A stretch of DNA of 64,000 bases from a virus, in the IMG/VR virus record IMGVR_UViG_3300032246_001180, positions 96,001-160,000 of that record; one strand, given 5' to 3'. Under the pieces are notes generated by a model. That model made no database searches and was not told the DNA's origin. It was given only the letters and a program-made list of their open reading frames with translations. Of the stretch, positions 348 through 42,147 are shown piece after piece (position 1 is the stretch's first letter; the number at the start of each line of letters is the position of its first letter). The translations under genes were made by a program, and so were the position numbers.

Positions 348-938
348 ATGATTAATCATTATTTTCCCACAGCAGTATTTTCTGAAATGAATATACCTTT
401 GGCTGAGGCTATGTTACCGGTTGCACGAAAATATCTGGATAATAAAGATTATGTTAGTAACAAATGGGGTTACAAGAACACTTTTGATAACTCTTGGAAA
501 TTGGCTGAACAACCTGATATCAAACCATACAATGATTATGTAACGGAAAAAGGTAAACAATTTTTAGATGAGATAGGTTATAATTCAAATGCTTTTGTTG
601 AATGGCATAACATGGTTTTTGTAAGTGAGATATTTAAAAACAATAATCATGAAAGACATTCACATCCTGATTGCACAATATCTGGACTTTTGTACTTACA
701 AGTTCCAGAAAATTCTGCACCGCTTATCTTTTTAGATCCTAGGCCGCACAGAGATTTTGTAGCTATGCCTAAATCATTACACAATACGGCCGCAAACAGA
801 GAGAAAATAGTTATTATTCCACGAAAAGGATTATTCTTAGCATGGGAAGCTTGGTTGCCTCATGCCATACCAAAATCAAATAATGAAGGTGAAGGAAGAA
901 TTACTATGGTTTTTAATTTAAAAGGTATTCAAAAATGA
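348..938 (+). CDS. putative 2OG-Fe(II) oxygenase (TIGR02466-like)
   Basis: HxH, ISGLLYL, F.DPRP, W.aWL.H and RITMVFN motifs. Confidence 0.85.
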   Translation: MINHYFPTAVFSEMNIPLAEAMLPVARKYLDNKDYVSNKWGYKNTFDNSWKLAEQPDIKPYNDYVTEKGKQFLDEIGYNSNAFVEWHNMVFVSEIFKNNNHERHSHPDCTISGLLYLQVPENSAPLIFLDPRPHRDFVAMPKSLHNTAANREKIVIIPRKGLFLAWEAWLPHAIPKSNNEGEGRITMVFNLKGIQK

Positions 939-29654: not shown

Positions 29655-29784
29655 GAACTTTAAACGTAAAAAAACAAAGAGGTGCGTTCGTTGTACAATG
29701 TGTACACAGCATCGATGGTTAGGTAACAACAAAGGTCGTAAACCTATCCGTGATATGCGAAACGAACAAAAAGAATTGTTGTAA
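29653..29784 (+). CDS. small basic Cys-containing protein (not in ORF track)
   Basis: AAGGAG SD; MNFKRKKTKRCVRCTMCTQHRWLGNNKGR... Confidence 0.55.
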   Translation: MNFKRKKTKRCVRCTMCTQHRWLGNNKGRKPIRDMRNEQKELL

Positions 29785-30068
29785 TCCCTTCTAAGCGAAG
29801 GACTTCTGGACGGGGGTGCGAATCCCCCCAGCTCCACCAATTATCTACTTTTATCCGGAAACAGATAATTATTCGGATTAAATAAAAGTGTATAATTGAT
29901 GGGGCTGCATAGTTTCGACAGGGGTAGATAGTAAAGACGGCAACACGGTAGGCGATGACCGTTAATCAAGCAAAACAAGTAAACGCAAACGATAGCGAAT
30001 ACGCATTAGCAGCTTAAAGGCCGCTTAGGGTTTTTGGCAGTTTATCCTCGTAACAGAATTAAACTGCC
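29785..30068 (+). ncRNA. ssrA: circularly permuted (two-piece) tmRNA; tag ANDSEYALAA; outer ends approximate
   Basis: acceptor piece: T-arm GGGGG-TGCGAAT-CCCCC and CAGCTCC-A-CCA ending 29839; intervening hairpin 29840-29900; coding piece starts GGGGCTG at 29901 (G3.U70); tag frame 29985-30017; inter-piece pairing CTAAGCG/CGCTTAG. Confidence 0.95.
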
Positions 30069-30138
30069 TAAATAAATTTACTAGACAACACACACAATCG
30101 TCTAGTAATACACATAAACACACACAAGGAGTAAAAAT

Positions 30139-31273: not shown

Positions 31274-31890
31274 ATGAGAATACAGGCTTTGCAGCTTACG
31301 CTCTGTGGAATGCCTTGAAGCTGCACTTTACATCCGATTCGTATGATTATTTTAAATACAACGGCAAAACCAATGTATCAAAACAAACGTTTTCCATAAG
31401 AAAAGATAAGTACCAGTTTTATAAACTTAGTCGTAAGTATGGTTTAGAAGAATTGAAAAACTTTTATGTGGCAAACTTTGTATATGGTAAATCTGATTGG
31501 GTAGGTGAACTGTTGCAGGATGGCAACGAACATTATTTAAAGTGGCAAAAAACCATCCAGAGCTTGACTTATACCTTTGAAAATGATATAATATATTTGT
31601 TCGATTTGGTAGATGGTGCGGAGTTTTCAACCCGTGATGATATTTTAAAACCAATTGAAGGTGGTTGGCCAATGATTATTACCAAACTAATGAAAGGTAA
31701 AGTATCATTGGAATCTGTTTGTATTATGGTTGATGTTGTTGGTTGTATGCCTAGATGGGAAAAACAAATTACTGATGATATCATTTGGCCAACGTACCAT
31801 AGATTGATTAAGAAGTATACACCATTTATCGAATATGATAAAGAAAAATATACAAACATTTTGAAAGAAAAGATTAAAGAGTATGGCTGA
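31270..31890 (+). CDS. gp59: helicase loader gp59
   Basis: ALKLHFT..YDYFKYNGK, RKDKY.F.KL, KKY.PF. Confidence 0.9.
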   Translation: MNENTGFAAYALWNALKLHFTSDSYDYFKYNGKTNVSKQTFSIRKDKYQFYKLSRKYGLEELKNFYVANFVYGKSDWVGELLQDGNEHYLKWQKTIQSLTYTFENDIIYLFDLVDGAEFSTRDDILKPIEGGWPMIITKLMKGKVSLESVCIMVDVVGCMPRWEKQITDDIIWPTYHRLIKKYTPFIEYDKEKYTNILKEKIKEYG

Positions 31891-32368
31891 AATCACAACT
31901 ATCTACTTGGACATGGATGGCGTAATTGCTGACTTCAATAAACGGTATAAAGAATTGTTTGATATTGAACCGAGTGAAGCGGACAATTACAAAACATTTG
32001 AAAAATTCTTTTTGCAATTTATTGCACAAGAGCAATTTGCTACACTTGATTTAATGCCTGACGCTTTCAAACTTATTGATTATTTGAAATCTTTGCCAAT
32101 TGAAACTAAGATTCTTTCATCAACTTCATCCGAATCTAAAGATGAAGCGATTCGAGGTCAGAAGTTTAAATGGTTGCAAACACACAACATTACATTTGAA
32201 CCAATTCTTGTTCCAGGAAAAAGATTCAAACGTAAGTATGCCACTCCGTCCTCAATTTTAATTGACGATACTGAATCTAACATCAATCAATGGCATGAGG
32301 ATGGTGGTGTCGCCATACTACATACTAATATTGATGATACGATTAATCGTTTAAAGGCATACCTATGA
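31883..32368 (+). CDS. HAD-family 5'(3')-deoxyribonucleotidase-like protein
   Basis: YLDMDGVIADF, K..W, ILIDD...NI.QW..GG. Confidence 0.85.
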   Translation: MAEITTIYLDMDGVIADFNKRYKELFDIEPSEADNYKTFEKFFLQFIAQEQFATLDLMPDAFKLIDYLKSLPIETKILSSTSSESKDEAIRGQKFKWLQTHNITFEPILVPGKRFKRKYATPSSILIDDTESNINQWHEDGGVAILHTNIDDTINRLKAYL

Positions 32369-35689: not shown

Positions 35690-37192
35690 TTAAACGGTTC
35701 TCGTACTACCAATAATCATATTTCGGAAAGATGGTTCTAAATTTCTTACAGGTGCAATTGGATTTTTAGTCGGTGCATTACTGCCAGAAGAATTGACAGC
35801 TGCCGAATTGACTGTTGTACTAGCATCAGGTGTTGAAGATGGTAGATTTAAGGCTGCATTTTCACTACTTGCACTAGGTAAGGCTGCACTAGTAGGCGTG
35901 GAAGCTGCGGCCGTAGCGGTGGACGCACCACCACCGGCAGATGGTGTCGCAGTAGATCCAGCTGTCGGAGAAGCGCCTCCTGATGAAGTTTCTGGCGCTG
36001 TTTCGGTAGCGGTACTTGCAGGAGTGGCAGCTGGCGCAGGCGCTGGGGTTGCCGTTTTCTTAGTGCCATCCTCATTATAATCTTTGCCATATTTTTCATC
36101 CCAAGCAGCTGCTCGTACACCACGGGCAAGATTTTTTCCACCTGTTCCTGGTTTACCTGCAATAAAATCGGCCTTTGGTGGAACATTTTCTTTTATTCCC
36201 AATTCAGCATCACTTCTTTGTGGCGGAACTTCATATACTTTTTCATCAGCAGCAATGGCTTTAACTTTATCTTCACCACCAGCAGCCAACATTGCTTTTC
36301 TTTTGGCTTCTTTTTCTTCTTCGGTGGTTTCTGGCATATTCAAAATGTCTTGAGCATTCTTTTTGCCATTCTTAATAATGTCTTCTAATTTTTCACGGCC
36401 GCCCATTGCTTCAATATCTCTAGCATTTCCATTTTGTAAAATTGCCTGTGCTTCATCAGGACTTAAAGCCTTCATATTAGGAGTATTTTCGGCCAATTTC
36501 TCCAAACCAAATTTTATCAAAGCAATAAGCGCAACCATCGAGGCTACACCCAACAATGCAAGACCAACAGGACTTGCAAACCAACCTAATACACTCATCA
36601 AAGTTTGTACAACAGCACGACCACCCAATAAAGTTTCTAATAAACTACCACCAGAATCTTGCGTTACCTTTGTGGCAGTTGCTTTGCCTGTGTATGGTTT
36701 GCCTGTAATTGCTTCAATAAGTTCTTTGTGTCGTTTTAACTTCTCAAGTTCATTTTCTTCTTTGTAGTTGTTTGCTTCTTCTCTACGTTTTGTTTCATCT
36801 TCAAAAGATTTGTTCATTAGATTATAAATCTTCTCTAACGTAGCATCAAAACCTCTACCGCCAGTACTAGTGCTTTTAATTTTATCGGCTGTATTTTTTG
36901 TATCTTGTAATTGCTCAGCTCTTTCACCTTTTTTTCTCGCACCAGTAAAGAAATTGATAGACTCTTGTTTTCTACCTGTGGCCTTACCCAACATAGCAGG
37001 CGCCCAATTAGAACCAAATGTCATAAATTTGGCAATATTCATTGGGTCAAAGAACTGTTTGATGCCTTCTGTTTTGGCTTTAGTTTTAAGACCGATAGCC
37101 TTTTTCATGGACGTGCCGAAGCCACCTTCTTGTTCTGCAAGTAAAGTGCCAAATGATTTTTTTCTTATCTCTTTTGCTTCTTTATAGTCCAT
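35690..37192 (-). CDS. baseplate hub/tape-measure-like protein
   Basis: downstream of gp26/gp51; helical, hydrophobic mid segment, Ala/Thr/Ser-rich tail; N-terminus paralogous to 37196-39406. Confidence 0.55.
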   Translation of the reverse strand: MDYKEAKEIRKKSFGTLLAEQEGGFGTSMKKAIGLKTKAKTEGIKQFFDPMNIAKFMTFGSNWAPAMLGKATGRKQESINFFTGARKKGERAEQLQDTKNTADKIKSTSTGGRGFDATLEKIYNLMNKSFEDETKRREEANNYKEENELEKLKRHKELIEAITGKPYTGKATATKVTQDSGGSLLETLLGGRAVVQTLMSVLGWFASPVGLALLGVASMVALIALIKFGLEKLAENTPNMKALSPDEAQAILQNGNARDIEAMGGREKLEDIIKNGKKNAQDILNMPETTEEEKEAKRKAMLAAGGEDKVKAIAADEKVYEVPPQRSDAELGIKENVPPKADFIAGKPGTGGKNLARGVRAAAWDEKYGKDYNEDGTKKTATPAPAPAATPASTATETAPETSSGGASPTAGSTATPSAGGGASTATAAASTPTSAALPSASSENAALNLPSSTPDASTTVNSAAVNSSGSNAPTKNPIAPVRNLEPSFRNMIIGSTRTV

Positions 37193-37195
37193 ATT

Positions 37196-39406
37196 TTATC
37201 TTCTTTGAGCAGCATCCATTGGTGATGAATCATCTCTGCGTTGACCTGGTCTGGCAGGCAATGTTTGATTATTGACTGTTGTATTATTTACGGTTGTTGA
37301 ATTACCACCTTGGTTATTTAACTCACCACGAAGTTGAGTATTTTCTTGTGATAGACCTAACACATTATACATCTTTTCACCTTCATGTAATTGAGTATTT
37401 AAATAAGTTGCTCTATCAGTACCACTACTAAAAGCTTTACGCACTTGTTCAACGTCCGCAATGTTTACTTTTCCTTTACCTGCTGTTAACAGAATTAAGG
37501 CCTTTTTTAAATCTTCTGGATTTTCATAAGAATTTAAAATTTTAAGACCTTTTTGATATCCAGCTTTTAATTGTTCAACGGTCAAAAGTGGACTTAAACT
37601 ATCAGCTGCCAACAAAGAAAGATAAGCTAAAGTTGCTGCTGAAGTTGTTTTTACATCTTTATTGATTAATTCAGGATTATTCACCAAGTCTAATCCCATT
37701 AATTTTCCAATAGCTTCATAGGTGTCTTTATGGGTTATACCAATTAAAGACCTGCCTTTGTATTTTTCCCCGCCTTTGTAACCAACAGCTTCAAAGAATT
37801 TACCTTCATTAGGATCATCTATTACCGATTTCCATTGTTCGGAAGACCATTTTTTTCCAAAAGTAAAATTCATATAAGCAGTGCCGGCGCCTGCACCGCT
37901 TTGCGGAGCATCTGCATTTTTTGCTTTTATTTTTTCATACTTGTCATTTGGAATTTTAGATTTACCTGATTCCATATTGCGCCAAGTATTTTTGTAAGCT
38001 ACTGGACCTTCTTCGCTTAATGTTTGTCCTGCTTGTGTTTCTTTTGCAGCAACAAGCATAACGCTAGCCGATAAAGCTGAAGAAGCACCCATAGAAACTA
38101 ATTCTTTTTTAATATTTGCACTTCTTTGAGCTGCATCTAAACCTTTTAGTCCTTCACCTTCTCTACCAACTTTTGTTGCTGTTGATGGTTTTGTCGTTGA
38201 TGGTTTTGCAGGTTGAGCTGAAGGTTCTTTCTGTTGACCAGGTCTTTGAGGTTGTTGTCTAGGTGCAGTTTGAGCTGGTGCTTGTTGCTGAGGTTGTTGA
38301 GCAGGTTGTTCTTCTTTTTTCTGTCTTGTTGCGGTTTCTCTATCAGTCTTATCTCTAGCATCTTTAGCTTCTTTATCGGCTTTTTCTTTAGCGTCTTTAG
38401 CTTCTCTGTCGGCTTTATCTTTTGCTGCCTTATTTTCTTTATCGGCTTTTTCTTTAGCGTCTTTAGCTTCTCTGTCGGCTTTTTGTTTAGCTTCTTTATC
38501 CGCTTTTTCCTTGGCAACACGGTCTTTTTCTGCACGGTCTTTATCCGCTTTTTCTTTAGCCTTAGTATCCTTATCTGCTTGTTTTTTATCAGTTTGAGAT
38601 TTATTTTCTTGGTTTTTAGAATCTCTTTCTTGTTGTCTTTGAGCAGGTTGTTCTTCTTTCTTAGCTGGCGGCTGTTCTTTTTTAACAGGTTGCTCTTCTT
38701 TCTTAGCTGGCGGCTGTTCTTTTTTAGCAGGCTGCTCAGTTTTCTTAGCTGGCGGCTGTTCTTTTTTAGCAGGCTGCTCAGTTTTCTTAGGCGGTTGTTC
38801 CGTCTTTTTAGTTGGGGTAGGCTTTTGGGTAGGCTTAGTTGGCTTTGGTGGCGGCTTCTGTTTTTCAGAAGGTTGTCCACCAGGTTTTTCTGTAGGCTTG
38901 GTTGGTTTTGAAGGTGTTACTCTTTTGAGTGAAAGAGCTTTCAATAATTCTTTGTGTCTTCTTTCTTCTTCTTTTTTATCTTTTTTATCAAACTTGTCAT
39001 CATTCTTATTCCACTTTTTGACCTCTTTTTCACGGTCTTTAATAAGTTTGTGAATTGCTCTGACAGATTCAATTGCTGGTGTAGGTGCATCTTCACCATC
39101 ATCATTATCGTTGACGGCGGCCGAACGACCCATTGTTTTGTTTTTTAATCTTGCACCGGTGAAATGTGCAATACTTTCGGCTTTTCTACCCGTCAGTTTA
39201 CCCAACATGGCTGGTGCCCAATTAGAACCAAAAGTCATCTTCTTAGCAATATTCATAGGGTCAAAAGTTTCCTTAAGACCTTCTATGTTTGCTCTTGTTT
39301 TTTGGCCAATTGCTGATTTTAAAGACGAACCAAGGCCTCCCTCTTGTTCAGCCAAAAGAGTGCCAAATGATTTTTTTCTTATCTTAGCAGCTGAACTATA
39401 ATCCAT
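37196..39406 (-). CDS. hub/tape-measure-like protein with repeats and a C-terminal GH19 lysozyme-like domain
   Basis: YKGRSLIGITHKDTY...GLDLVNNPELI resembles GH19; K/E/P-rich repeats. Confidence 0.65.
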   Translation of the reverse strand: MDYSSAAKIRKKSFGTLLAEQEGGLGSSLKSAIGQKTRANIEGLKETFDPMNIAKKMTFGSNWAPAMLGKLTGRKAESIAHFTGARLKNKTMGRSAAVNDNDDGEDAPTPAIESVRAIHKLIKDREKEVKKWNKNDDKFDKKDKKEEERRHKELLKALSLKRVTPSKPTKPTEKPGGQPSEKQKPPPKPTKPTQKPTPTKKTEQPPKKTEQPAKKEQPPAKKTEQPAKKEQPPAKKEEQPVKKEQPPAKKEEQPAQRQQERDSKNQENKSQTDKKQADKDTKAKEKADKDRAEKDRVAKEKADKEAKQKADREAKDAKEKADKENKAAKDKADREAKDAKEKADKEAKDARDKTDRETATRQKKEEQPAQQPQQQAPAQTAPRQQPQRPGQQKEPSAQPAKPSTTKPSTATKVGREGEGLKGLDAAQRSANIKKELVSMGASSALSASVMLVAAKETQAGQTLSEEGPVAYKNTWRNMESGKSKIPNDKYEKIKAKNADAPQSGAGAGTAYMNFTFGKKWSSEQWKSVIDDPNEGKFFEAVGYKGGEKYKGRSLIGITHKDTYEAIGKLMGLDLVNNPELINKDVKTTSAATLAYLSLLAADSLSPLLTVEQLKAGYQKGLKILNSYENPEDLKKALILLTAGKGKVNIADVEQVRKAFSSGTDRATYLNTQLHEGEKMYNVLGLSQENTQLRGELNNQGGNSTTVNNTTVNNQTLPARPGQRRDDSSPMDAAQRR
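38361..38790 (-). repeat. in-frame tandem repeats (42-bp and 66-bp periods)
   Basis: TTAGCTGGCG at 38661/38703/38745 (KKEQPPAKKTEQPA); KADREAKDAKEKADKE x2. Confidence 0.85.
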
Positions 39407-39409
39407 TTA

Positions 39410-39598
39410 CTATTTTCTTTGTTTCTCTTTTAGTCTTTGGTTTTCTTCTTCAATATATTGTATCAGCATGGTAACGTAGATATCCCTTTCCCAAGGAATC
39501 ATCGACTCAAGTTCAGTAAGACTATACTTATGGTGTTGCATCAAGGAAAAGTTAGTCTTGTAATAATTCTTTAAATTGTCATGACGAAGTGTTAGCCG
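39410..39598 (-). CDS. gp51: gp51-like baseplate hub assembly protein; first ATG at 39541 but frame open to the gp26 end (probable -1 frameshift)
   Basis: RHDNLKNYYKTNFSLMQHHKYSLTELESMIPWERDIY; absent from ORF track. Confidence 0.8.
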   Translation of the reverse strand, partial: RLTLRHDNLKNYYKTNFSLMQHHKYSLTELESMIPWERDIYVTMLIQYIEEENQRLKEKQRK

Positions 39599-40320
39599 AA
39601 AAAATCTTCAAGACCCTCCACAACAAGGTGGTGTTCAAAACCACACTTACTGCAAGTGATATCAATATCTTGTTTCATTCTTGGCAACTGATTGAAGAAC
39701 GCTTCAACCTTTTCAAACTGCTCTTGATTCATACTCTCAACGAATTCTAACATCTCACCAGCTTCTGCTTCTCTACCATAGTGAAATTCTTCTGTCGGTA
39801 CTTCATAGATGTATTCAATACTGTTAGCAATCATATTGAAAGTAACTTCATTAATATCATCCATGTTGATTGAATCTCTGACCAATCCAAATTCTGGATA
39901 TTTCATTTTGATAATGATTCGTTCTGAAAGTTTAATTTCAGGATTAATATCCGGTACATCAACCTTAACCGAATTCAAATCAACATCTTTTTCCATAATA
40001 TTTCCGCACTCTTTATCTTCAACTGTATTGTTGCAACGATAACGTGCCTGAATCATTTCACCTACTGACTTGGCACGCAAGTTTACAAAGTAATACTCAA
40101 CGTCAACAATAGGCAATTTATCGATTTCAACACCTTCTGTAACTGTACAGTTATAAAGAATATCATGTACGTTTTGTTGAATGGTTTCACTTTCACCAGA
40201 CTCTAACGCCATCAAAAGATTCTTTTGTTCTTTTACAAGAAACGGTCTATATTTAATTTTTCTTTTTGAAACCGGCAATTCTAATTCATATGTCGGCACA
40301 TCAAGTTTAGGCAACGCCAT
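39592..40320 (-). CDS. gp26: baseplate hub assembly protein gp26
   Basis: MALPK..P.YEL.LP, YRPFLVKE.K.LL.A.ES, LRAKSVGE, EGL..FF. Confidence 0.92.
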   Translation of the reverse strand: MALPKLDVPTYELELPVSKRKIKYRPFLVKEQKNLLMALESGESETIQQNVHDILYNCTVTEGVEIDKLPIVDVEYYFVNLRAKSVGEMIQARYRCNNTVEDKECGNIMEKDVDLNSVKVDVPDINPEIKLSERIIIKMKYPEFGLVRDSINMDDINEVTFNMIANSIEYIYEVPTEEFHYGREAEAGEMLEFVESMNQEQFEKVEAFFNQLPRMKQDIDITCSKCGFEHHLVVEGLEDFFG

Positions 40321-40344: not shown

Positions 40345-41031
40345 TTATCTACCAAAAACACCTTTGATAGATTCCATCGAACCACTAGCAACTGAATCAG
40401 GTAAAGAATTTATACCTGTTCCTAAACCACCAACAGCATTTAAACCACCAACAGCATCCGCAATAGCAGATATGCCAGCATCGACAATCTCCATACCAAG
40501 AGCTTGTAGTGAGTTGTTTTTCCAATATGTGTATGCAAAGGTTACTGATAATTTATGATAACCTTCACTAGACCAATCTAAATCTAATTGGTTCATAGAA
40601 ATAGGAAAAGCATCATACAAACTACAAGAATAAGAAATTTCATTCATTACATCATACTGTGAAATCGTAATAATCGAAGCGTAATCACTTTTGTATCTAT
40701 AATTGTAATTAAATGTTGGATTGATATAATTCATCCAAGCATCAAAGAAAACTTTTTGACTCATATCATCATCAACAATGAATGTTAGGTCAATATCATT
40801 ATATGTTGTTTCGTAAGGAAACTTTTCAATTGGGTTTGAACCAATCTTTTGTTCTGCGGTTGCAAAAGTTCTACCTGGAAGTTGTGCTTGTTCACAACGC
40901 ATAGACAAACCTCTTGCTGACTTAATATAAGGCAGTAAAGTCAAAGGCACAGGAATATCTACCAAAAACTTACTTGGTCTTGCAACGTCTTTTTTAAAAC
41001 TAGATTGAAACTCTGATATTGAACCAGCCAT
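40345..41031 (-). CDS. gp54: tail-tube initiator gp54-like (gp19-fold) protein
   Basis: ARP.KF.V, C..AQLPG, F.D.W.N, L.DAFP.S..Q.DL.W, V.FAY..W; synteny. Confidence 0.7.
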   Translation of the reverse strand: MAGSISEFQSSFKKDVARPSKFLVDIPVPLTLLPYIKSARGLSMRCEQAQLPGRTFATAEQKIGSNPIEKFPYETTYNDIDLTFIVDDDMSQKVFFDAWMNYINPTFNYNYRYKSDYASIITISQYDVMNEISYSCSLYDAFPISMNQLDLDWSSEGYHKLSVTFAYTYWKNNSLQALGMEIVDAGISAIADAVGGLNAVGGLGTGINSLPDSVASGSMESIKGVFGR

Positions 41032-41648: not shown

Positions 41649-42083
41649 TCACAGTCCTAGGTGGTCTTCGGTTAATATTCTAAACTCCCATCCTCGGTCT
41701 GCACAATACTCATTAGCCGCTTTCCATTTGGCTTGATTGACACCCCAAGTGGTAACTTCATTGATATATTGTTTAGTTTTTCTGGTTTGTTGTTTAGGTG
41801 GTTGAGTTTGTTTTTTAGGTTTAACTTCAATCATTAATGTTTTCAGTTTACTATCTCTAGTTCTTAATTTAATAAGGAAATCGGGAAAATATCGATGAAA
41901 TCGTCCATCAACAGGAGATTTGTAAGGCACAGTCAATTCTTCAGAACCCCATGCAATAACATCAGGGTTTCTGTCTAACCAGTCCATGACCTTACATTCC
42001 CATGAAGAACGATAAACTATGTTTTTGTAATCACCAATATATTTTGAAGGATTTTTCGGTCTAAAGAGTCCACTATACGCCAT
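41649..42083 (-). CDS. gp4: head completion nuclease gp4
   Basis: P.NP.KY.GD, YRSSWE, W.SEE, HRYFPDF, IEVKP, NQAKW.AA. Confidence 0.95.
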   Translation of the reverse strand: MAYSGLFRPKNPSKYIGDYKNIVYRSSWECKVMDWLDRNPDVIAWGSEELTVPYKSPVDGRFHRYFPDFLIKLRTRDSKLKTLMIEVKPKKQTQPPKQQTRKTKQYINEVTTWGVNQAKWKAANEYCADRGWEFRILTEDHLGL

Positions 42084-42104
42084 ATAAAACTTCCAAGTTA
42101 ACCT

Positions 42105-42112
42105 TATAAATA
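42105..42112 (+). promoter_or_regulatory. T4-type late promoter
   Basis: TATAAATA upstream of the gp48 operon. Confidence 0.8.
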
Positions 42113-42147
42113 CTATGTATAACATTTCCCCAACCTAAGAGGACTTA

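Follow-up and report, generated by a model that had tools for sequence, protein, structure and literature searches.

A -1 frameshift within the tail assembly chaperone genes is a conserved feature of long-tailed phages (Xu, Hendrix and Duda 2004; reviewed by Atkins et al. 2016, PMC5009743), and that review describes the G-T frameshift as conserved in long-tailed phages "except T4". In T4, gp26 (208 aa) and gp51 (249 aa) are listed as hub assembly chaperones in Table 2 of Leiman et al. 2010 (PMC3004832), and the same paper has gp51 as required for assembly and absent from the particle, as a chaperone would be. [quoted passage not shown] The PRFect paper cites this work for the observation that some T4-like phages carry a short gene together with a fused long gene and use no frameshifting, while a 2025 paper in Viruses cites it in connection with the poly-T -1 slippery sequences of the "TAC-N genes of T4-like phages". 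The first-pass annotation of the DNA described here had taken a frameshift between gp26 and gp51 to be not yet established for T4-like phages; that part of it has to be given up, since the passages concerned in both citing papers credit the 2022 prediction. As for experiment, our search of the literature found no proof of the frameshift in the present phage or in any T4-like phage.

The gp26-gp51 junction of an uncultured phage

The locus lies within a 64,000-nt stretch of DNA, all of which was analyzed and is referred to below as the window. It belongs to an uncultured phage that is without a counterpart in the isolate collection, the best isolate match having 40% identity; its best relatives in culture are cyanophages and Methylophilales and Pelagibacter myophages, at approximately 40% identity. 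The relevant features, read 5' to 3' along the minus strand, are as follows:

40345-41031, minus strand: tube-family gene, 228 aa (phrog_45 "tail tube", E 2e-41; Pfam matches to Phage_TTP_2 and gp19, both weak)
39592-40320, minus strand: gp26-like gene, 242 aa, the putative short-form chaperone gene (TAC-N), identified from the list of open reading frames, PF12322, phrog_150 and an AF2 model
39610-39608, minus strand: TGA closing the -1 frame upstream of the heptamer, from the sequence
39606-39604 (GAT), 39603-39601 (TTT), 39600-39598 (TTC), 39597-39595 (GGC) and 39594-39592 (TAA), minus strand: last codons of the 0-frame
39604-39598, minus strand: slippery heptamer T_TTT_TTC in the X_XXY_YYZ phase of the gp26 frame, from the sequence
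39410-39598, minus strand: -1 extension (gp51-like, TAC-C), 62 sense codons followed by a TAG at 39412-39410
37196-39406, minus strand: 736-aa protein (residues 542-588 match Pfam Glyco_hydro_19, E 5e-6, with atlas structure matches to GH19)
35690-37192, minus strand: 500-aa paralogue, having its N-terminal ~180 residues in common with the 736-aa protein

The 3' end of the gp26-like gene (minus strand, 40320-39592) reads CTT GAA GAT TTT TTC GGC TAA, which leaves one sense codon between T_TTT_TTC and the gp26 stop. Upstream of the slip, the -1 frame is open for just 3 codons; past the TGA it reads AGA TTT TTT CGG and onwards, with 62 sense codons after the slip (39598-39413). Due to the TGA in the -1 frame and the TAA in the 0-frame, a change of frame is confined to 13 nt (39607-39595), of which the heptamer occupies 7. 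The -1 peptide is RLTLRHDNLKNYYKTNFSLMQHHKYSLTELESMIPWERDIY..., the predicted fusion has a length of 241 + 62 = 303 aa as compared to 242 aa for the short form, and the 736-aa ORF starts at 39406, 3 nt past the stop of the -1 ORF. The junction itself is in exact agreement with the first-pass annotation, which had described the same gene end, the same heptamer, the TGA preceding it, 62 open codons and the peptide RLTLRHDNLKNYYKTNFSLMQHHKYSLTELESMIPWERDIY, and had estimated a fusion of about 303 aa.

Based upon these features and the comparisons described below, we consider it very probable that the gp26-like gene makes both a 242-aa and a 303-aa form of a tail chaperone through a -1 slip on T_TTT_TTC. 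[quoted passage not shown] Most ribosomes would decode GAT TTT TTC GGC and stop at the TAA, yielding 242 aa, while a minority, with tRNA-Phe in both the P and A sites on U_UUU_UUC, would slip back by one base and translate 62 more codons in the -1 frame to yield the 303-aa long form, the extension of which would correspond to the annotated "gp51". The site itself fits tandem slippage of two tRNA-Phe. We infer that the slip is ribosomal in nature and, by analogy, that its efficiency is a few percent; the partner of the chaperone would presumably be the downstream 736-aa protein, the 500-aa protein, or both. The two forms would parallel both gpG/gpGT of lambda and gp26/gp51 of T4, the latter phage having apparently replaced the frameshift by two separate genes.

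A heptamer of this type is not a rare occurrence within the window, which has a GC content of 36.5% and in which 4 of the 71 ORFs of at least 100 aa have a comparable motif by chance (scored as an in-frame XXXYYYZ no more than 15 codons from the stop, together with a -1 extension of at least 40 codons), and consequently the case relies upon comparative evidence from 129 related loci and their 86 unique junctions. Elsewhere in the window, the ORFs at 31883-32368 (+) and 348-938 (+) contain in-frame heptamers (TTTAAAG and TTTAAAA) 5-6 codons before their stops, with a -1 frame that is open for approximately 197-199 codons. Those -1 frames probably belong to the next overlapping gene in each case.

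Conservation of the heptamer and of the -1 frame

The junction was compared in two sets of relatives. The first was made up of 84 junctions, taken from S-T4, Melnitz, Mosig, the window and 80 IMG/VR loci whose gp26 identity is 66-87%. In all 84, T_TTT_TT[C/T] lies at the corresponding position and in an unchanged phase, over a range of 38-87% gp26 identity to the query. Among those loci that are long enough, the -1 ORF extends for 62-66 codons, with conservation of the peptide starting at the first post-slip residue. The second set, 43 loci having 25-45% identity to another family member (P0024), contains T_TTT_TTT, T_TTT_TTA and T_TTT_TTC as well as a single G_TTT_TTT. The heptamer can also be found in Lowelvirus, Pootjesviridae, Schizotequatrovirus, Ralstonia phage RSP15, Pseudomonas phage pf16, Citrobacter phage Ci1 and Ceceduovirus, and both the heptamer and the -1 phase are retained across gp26 proteins down to approximately 25% identity. 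The 86 unique junctions obtained from the 129 loci comprise TTTTTTC (61), TTTTTTA (13), TTTTTTT (11) and GTTTTTT (1). These junction counts overstate the number of independent events, as the sequences share ancestry; despite this, the pattern recurs in lineages with less than 40% identity. Comparing gp26-gp51 junctions was the check proposed in the first-pass annotation, and the result was a U-rich heptamer in the same -1 phase throughout the 129 related loci, with neither a variable phase nor a missing heptamer among the 86 unique junctions.

The composition of the individual codons indicates what is being conserved. The residue preceding the two Phe varies (D, S, N or G, with codons GAT, AGT, AAT, GGT and TCT), whereas the third base of its codon is T in 85 of the 86 unique junctions, and the first Phe codon is TTT in all 86. 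As a background, codons ending in T occur at frequencies of 0.71-0.80 in the same genes and TTT at 0.74. TTA takes the place of the second Phe codon in 13 junctions, which changes the 0-frame residue to Leu and leaves the run of T intact. These patterns show a constraint upon the heptamer beyond that required by the protein. A departure from this pattern is found among the Ackermannviridae, such as Escherichia phage ECML-4 (L090, ~2220-2245) and Dickeya phage Kamild (L092, ~1985-2010), which keep a homologous -1 ORF (NFHL[I/M]FE.DLLSYF...MPWHLDLL) next to the site GAA ATT TTC ATT TAA, with four T. That site permits only a single-tRNA slip on U_UUC, which implies either a degenerate signal or a different one.

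Candidate stimulatory elements were sought on both sides of the heptamer. A downstream hairpin or pseudoknot was rejected, as the fold is no better than that of shuffled sequences (MFE -12.4 kcal/mol, z = 0.11) and there is no consensus structure: RNAalifold identified no pairs in 21 relatives, and the local folds are weak and differ from one relative to another. Upstream, the window contains an SD-like GAG GGT (GGAGGG) located 9 nt 5' of the heptamer, which was likewise rejected, since the Glu codon is GAA (GAA GGN) in 47 of 52 close relatives and the GAGG is accordingly judged not to be conserved.

Conceivably, the long form could arise at the level of transcription, with RNA polymerase adding one U on the run of T such that part of the mRNAs encode the 303-aa protein in-frame. 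Polymerase and ribosomal slippage give an identical protein, and sequence data, the comparative protein evidence included, do not separate the two. Longer runs do exist in some relatives, including eight T in Melnitz (AGT TTT TTT TAA), L100 and L104 and seven in certain others, and there is no RNA structure of the kind that is often paired with ribosomal -1 shifts, both of which are compatible with a polymerase origin. However, appreciable slippage by bacterial RNA polymerase needs approximately 8-9 A or T, whereas the window and 61 of the 86 unique junctions have six T followed by C, a short run by that measure. In addition, the run never departs from the X_XXY_YYZ phase, and in the Ackermannviridae homologues the -1 ORF is retained next to a run of just four T. 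We consider it unlikely that in this lineage, with its six T here and seven to eight in some relatives, slippage of RNA polymerase is the source of all or part of the long form. If it were, tail assembly chaperones would have gained a mechanism that has not been described for them, and the missing stimulatory RNA element would be accounted for. Slippage of the ribosome on the heptamer is the reading that we favor.

The beginning of the -1 ORF bears upon a further alternative, in which the small ORF would be a gene of its own, translated from a TTG or ATG at codons 19/20 and perhaps coupled to the termination of gp26. The first start codons of the -1 ORF are indeed a TTG at codon 19 and an ATG at codon 20, one or the other is found near codons 19-20 in most relatives, and GenBank records annotate such a gene, the databases presenting it as a separate gene of 44-60 aa termed "baseplate hub assembly catalyst" or "hypothetical protein". 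In opposition to this, purifying selection in the -1 frame is stronger on codons 1-19 of the -1 ORF than on the end of gp26, with entropies of 0.23/0.11/0.93 by codon position vs. 0.52/0.25/1.08 for the last 40 gp26 codons. There is no SD-like motif upstream of any candidate start of the -1 ORF in either the window or the relatives compared, the start positions vary between relatives, and one relative lacks any start codon in the stretch of codons 1-19. Furthermore, the match of the -1 peptide to phrog_634 ("baseplate hub assembly catalyst", gp51; E 1.3e-29) starts at residue 2, well 5' of any start codon, the homology to T4 gp51 similarly starts at the slip site, and T4 gp51 itself has the makeup of a full-length fusion. 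Conservation of this kind shows codons 1-19 to be coding in the -1 frame, and both the entropy and the phrog_634 match agree with the earlier reading that the gp51-like sequence begins about 19 codons before its first ATG, which has no SD. The small ORF as an independent gene was rejected on the entropy of codons 1-19, the missing SD and the variable start, and we regard it as highly improbable.

Residues 1-201 of T4 gp51 (249 aa) span the full PF12322 domain, and its residues 200-249 align to the -1 peptide of the window from the slip-site Phe onwards (BLASTP, E 6e-7). Judged by this alignment, T4 gp51 corresponds to the predicted fusion encoded in a single frame, and T4 gp26 to the short form. 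T4 gene 26 (L084, 3803-4429) ends with GAG TTC TTT GAG TTA CTA TAA, which keeps the two Phe and has no slippery run, and the corresponding point of T4 gene 51 (L084, 4480-5229) is GTG TTT AAG; the two genes are adjacent and divergently transcribed. On this comparison, T4 gene 26 constitutes a natural control, having lost the heptamer in the presence of a separate gene for the long form. The two-gene state of T4 looks derived, as Straboviridae outside of the T4 subgroup retain the heptamer. The abstract of the 2022 prediction is said to describe the frameshift as conserved in several T4-like groups, with the T4 group using separate genes. In a further reading, the heptamer would be a mere by-product of two consecutive Phe in a genome rich in AT, with the -1 ORF as a remnant from which no joined product is made. 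Chance does produce a heptamer with a long -1 extension in 4 of the 71 window ORFs, but a neutral remnant cannot be reconciled with wobble bases, a phase and a -1 peptide that are conserved over 129 loci and across several phage families, nor with the loss of the heptamer exactly where a separate gene 51 exists. The comparative data effectively refute this reading.

Protein family, fold and neighboring genes

The 242-aa protein matches Pfam PF12322 (T4_baseplate) across profile positions 2-218 of 219 (E 3.8e-57; 193.9 bits vs. a cut-off of 24.5) as well as the gp26 profile phrog_150 (E 2.9e-60), and the -1 peptide also matches the C-terminal end of phrog_150. NCBIfam contains no family for either the gp26-like protein or the -1 peptide. 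Separate short and long genes like those of T4 were not found in the source genome, a 168,242-bp virus record that is rated 100% complete and has a single PF12322 gene, nor was an in-frame fusion of approximately 300 aa present among the best 150 relatives. The gp51-type C-terminal extension was found in the -1 frame only.

An AF2 model of the 242-aa protein was built on 143 family members (pLDDT 96.2, pTM 0.90) and compared exhaustively to 48,161 chains using VIA-align. The top three ranks were 3fgx (Z 7.0), 3klu (Z 6.6) and 2ob9 (Z 6.4), with the next match at Z 4.4, and these values call for some caution, as they are below 8 and pertain to the N-terminal 95 residues only. In each case, 85-86 residues within positions 1-95 of the 242-residue model were aligned to most of the target chain at 7-9% identity. 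The three proteins, which are Geobacillus Rbstp2171 (3fgx), B. subtilis YqbN (3klu) and the HK97 chaperone (2ob9), are all described as phage tail assembly chaperones in PMC9603447. When the same model was compared to the PDB using Foldseek, none of the matches reached E ≤0.001 and the HK97 chaperone came up at a probability of only 0.44, and a sequence-profile search of the PDB with the gp26-like protein yielded nothing relevant. As far as can be judged from a predicted structure, the assignment of a tail assembly chaperone fold to the N-terminal domain of gp26 is supported, which provides independent support for the analogy to lambda G/GT.

The C-terminal half of the model (residues 96-242) had no clear structural match. 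It contains four Cys, C96, C105, C223 and C226 (CX8C...CXXC), of which C105, C223 and C226 are each at least 90% conserved among the 143 relatives. This set of Cys suggests a zinc-ribbon-like site, and the zinc fingers of DnaJ and ZitP appear as weak structural echoes of this half of the protein (Z 3.1-3.3).

With respect to gene order, the first-pass annotation had proposed a lambda-like arrangement of tube-like, gp26, gp51 and tape-measure-like genes. A tube-family gene is present upstream, as indicated by its phrog_45 match, although the gene is of the type annotated as a gp54-type initiator: its syntenic counterparts in Mosig, Vibrio phage R10Z and Citrobacter phage Ci1 are annotated as tube initiators. 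The 228-aa protein had no significant BLAST match to T4 gp54; it is probably a gp54-type tube initiator rather than the major tube protein. On the downstream side, the tape measure assignment derives from position and is unaccompanied by similarity to gp29 or PF25671. The 736-aa and 500-aa proteins are 46% identical over residues 1-181 (BLASTP, E 1e-42); the former contains a long repeat region rich in K/E/P/Q as well as a muralytic domain that is GH19-like, and the latter contains a long hydrophobic segment and has no Pfam match at all. Searches of both proteins for similarity to T4 gp29 (BLAST) and PF25671 (Pfam) were negative, and a comparison to the downstream genes of six cultured relatives (S-T4, Melnitz, Mosig, R10Z, pf16 and ACG-2014d) found no copy of their shared N-terminal module. 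A language-model comparison placed the 500-aa protein with the PF25671 T4_Tape_measure cluster (score 0.88), which is a lead only. Both proteins are considered tape-measure candidates, the 736-aa protein by virtue of its position.

The other neighbors are T4-like as well, with gp4, gp2 and the tube-family protein encoded upstream and genes for gp48 and gp53 located on the opposite strand. At 41649-42125 (minus strand), the gp4-like head completion protein (phrog_218, E 2e-63) also matches the Pfam Tn7_TnsA-like_N endonuclease domain (E 3e-27). Further away, the window contains a permuted (two-piece) tmRNA at 29724-30071 (+), for which ARAGORN predicts the tag peptide ANDSEYALAA and Rfam gives 150.9 bits for tmRNA_permuted and 140.8 bits for beta_tmRNA. 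A tmRNA of the betaproteobacterial type may provide a hint as to the host.

Relationship to the lambda and T4 systems

We regard the site in this phage as real and well supported, but as an example of a type for which a bioinformatic description already exists, and its novelty is low. Since credit for the insight seems to be due to the 2022 paper, the value of the present example lies in its confirmation within a new uncultured lineage; the conservation of the wobble bases, the TTC TTT of T4 and the structural match serve as added controls, which are perhaps already included in that paper. Hundreds of T4-like records list a gene of 44-60 aa at this position, whereas the real product is most likely a fusion of approximately 300 aa, in which case these records are misannotated, and the frameshift product is still absent from database annotation. 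The comparison also ties the gp26/gp51 pair of T4, long a puzzle, to the chaperone frameshift that is near-universal among long-tailed phages, and presents the two-gene state of T4 as a natural case in which gene duplication has taken the place of recoding.

When the locus is set beside the described systems, several parallels to lambda G/GT can be drawn. In both, the -1 slip is placed a few codons ahead of the chaperone stop codon and would generate a short and a long form, the downstream ORF is without a start of its own, and a large gene follows immediately, which in this phage is the tape-measure candidate. The apparent lack of a stimulator likewise resembles the unstimulated, low-level shift of lambda G/GT, and the N-terminal domain of the gp26-like protein has its predicted fold in common with the HK97 chaperone. 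The first-pass annotation had named the site a lambda G/GT-like frameshift, a description now backed by conservation at 129 loci, by codons 1-19, by the gp51 homology and by the fold of the N-domain. There are differences as well: there is no sequence similarity to the lambda proteins, the heptamer is U_UUU_UUC rather than the G_GGA_AAG of lambda, gp26 is about twice as long as gpG and has an extra C-terminal half with four conserved Cys, and the gene resides among baseplate-hub genes, unlike its lambda counterpart. Relative to the T4-like genes of Vladimirov et al. 2022, as these are presented in the citing papers, the family and the concept of a short (TAC-N) and a long (TAC-NC) form are the same, and the present phage is an uncultured one. 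As for T4 itself, PF12322 is found in its gp26, in its gp51 and in the gp26-like protein of the window, and the C-terminus of its gp51 is homologous to the -1 peptide. T4 accomplishes this with two separate, divergent genes and no slippery site in gene 26, whereas the window genome has a single gene with a heptamer.
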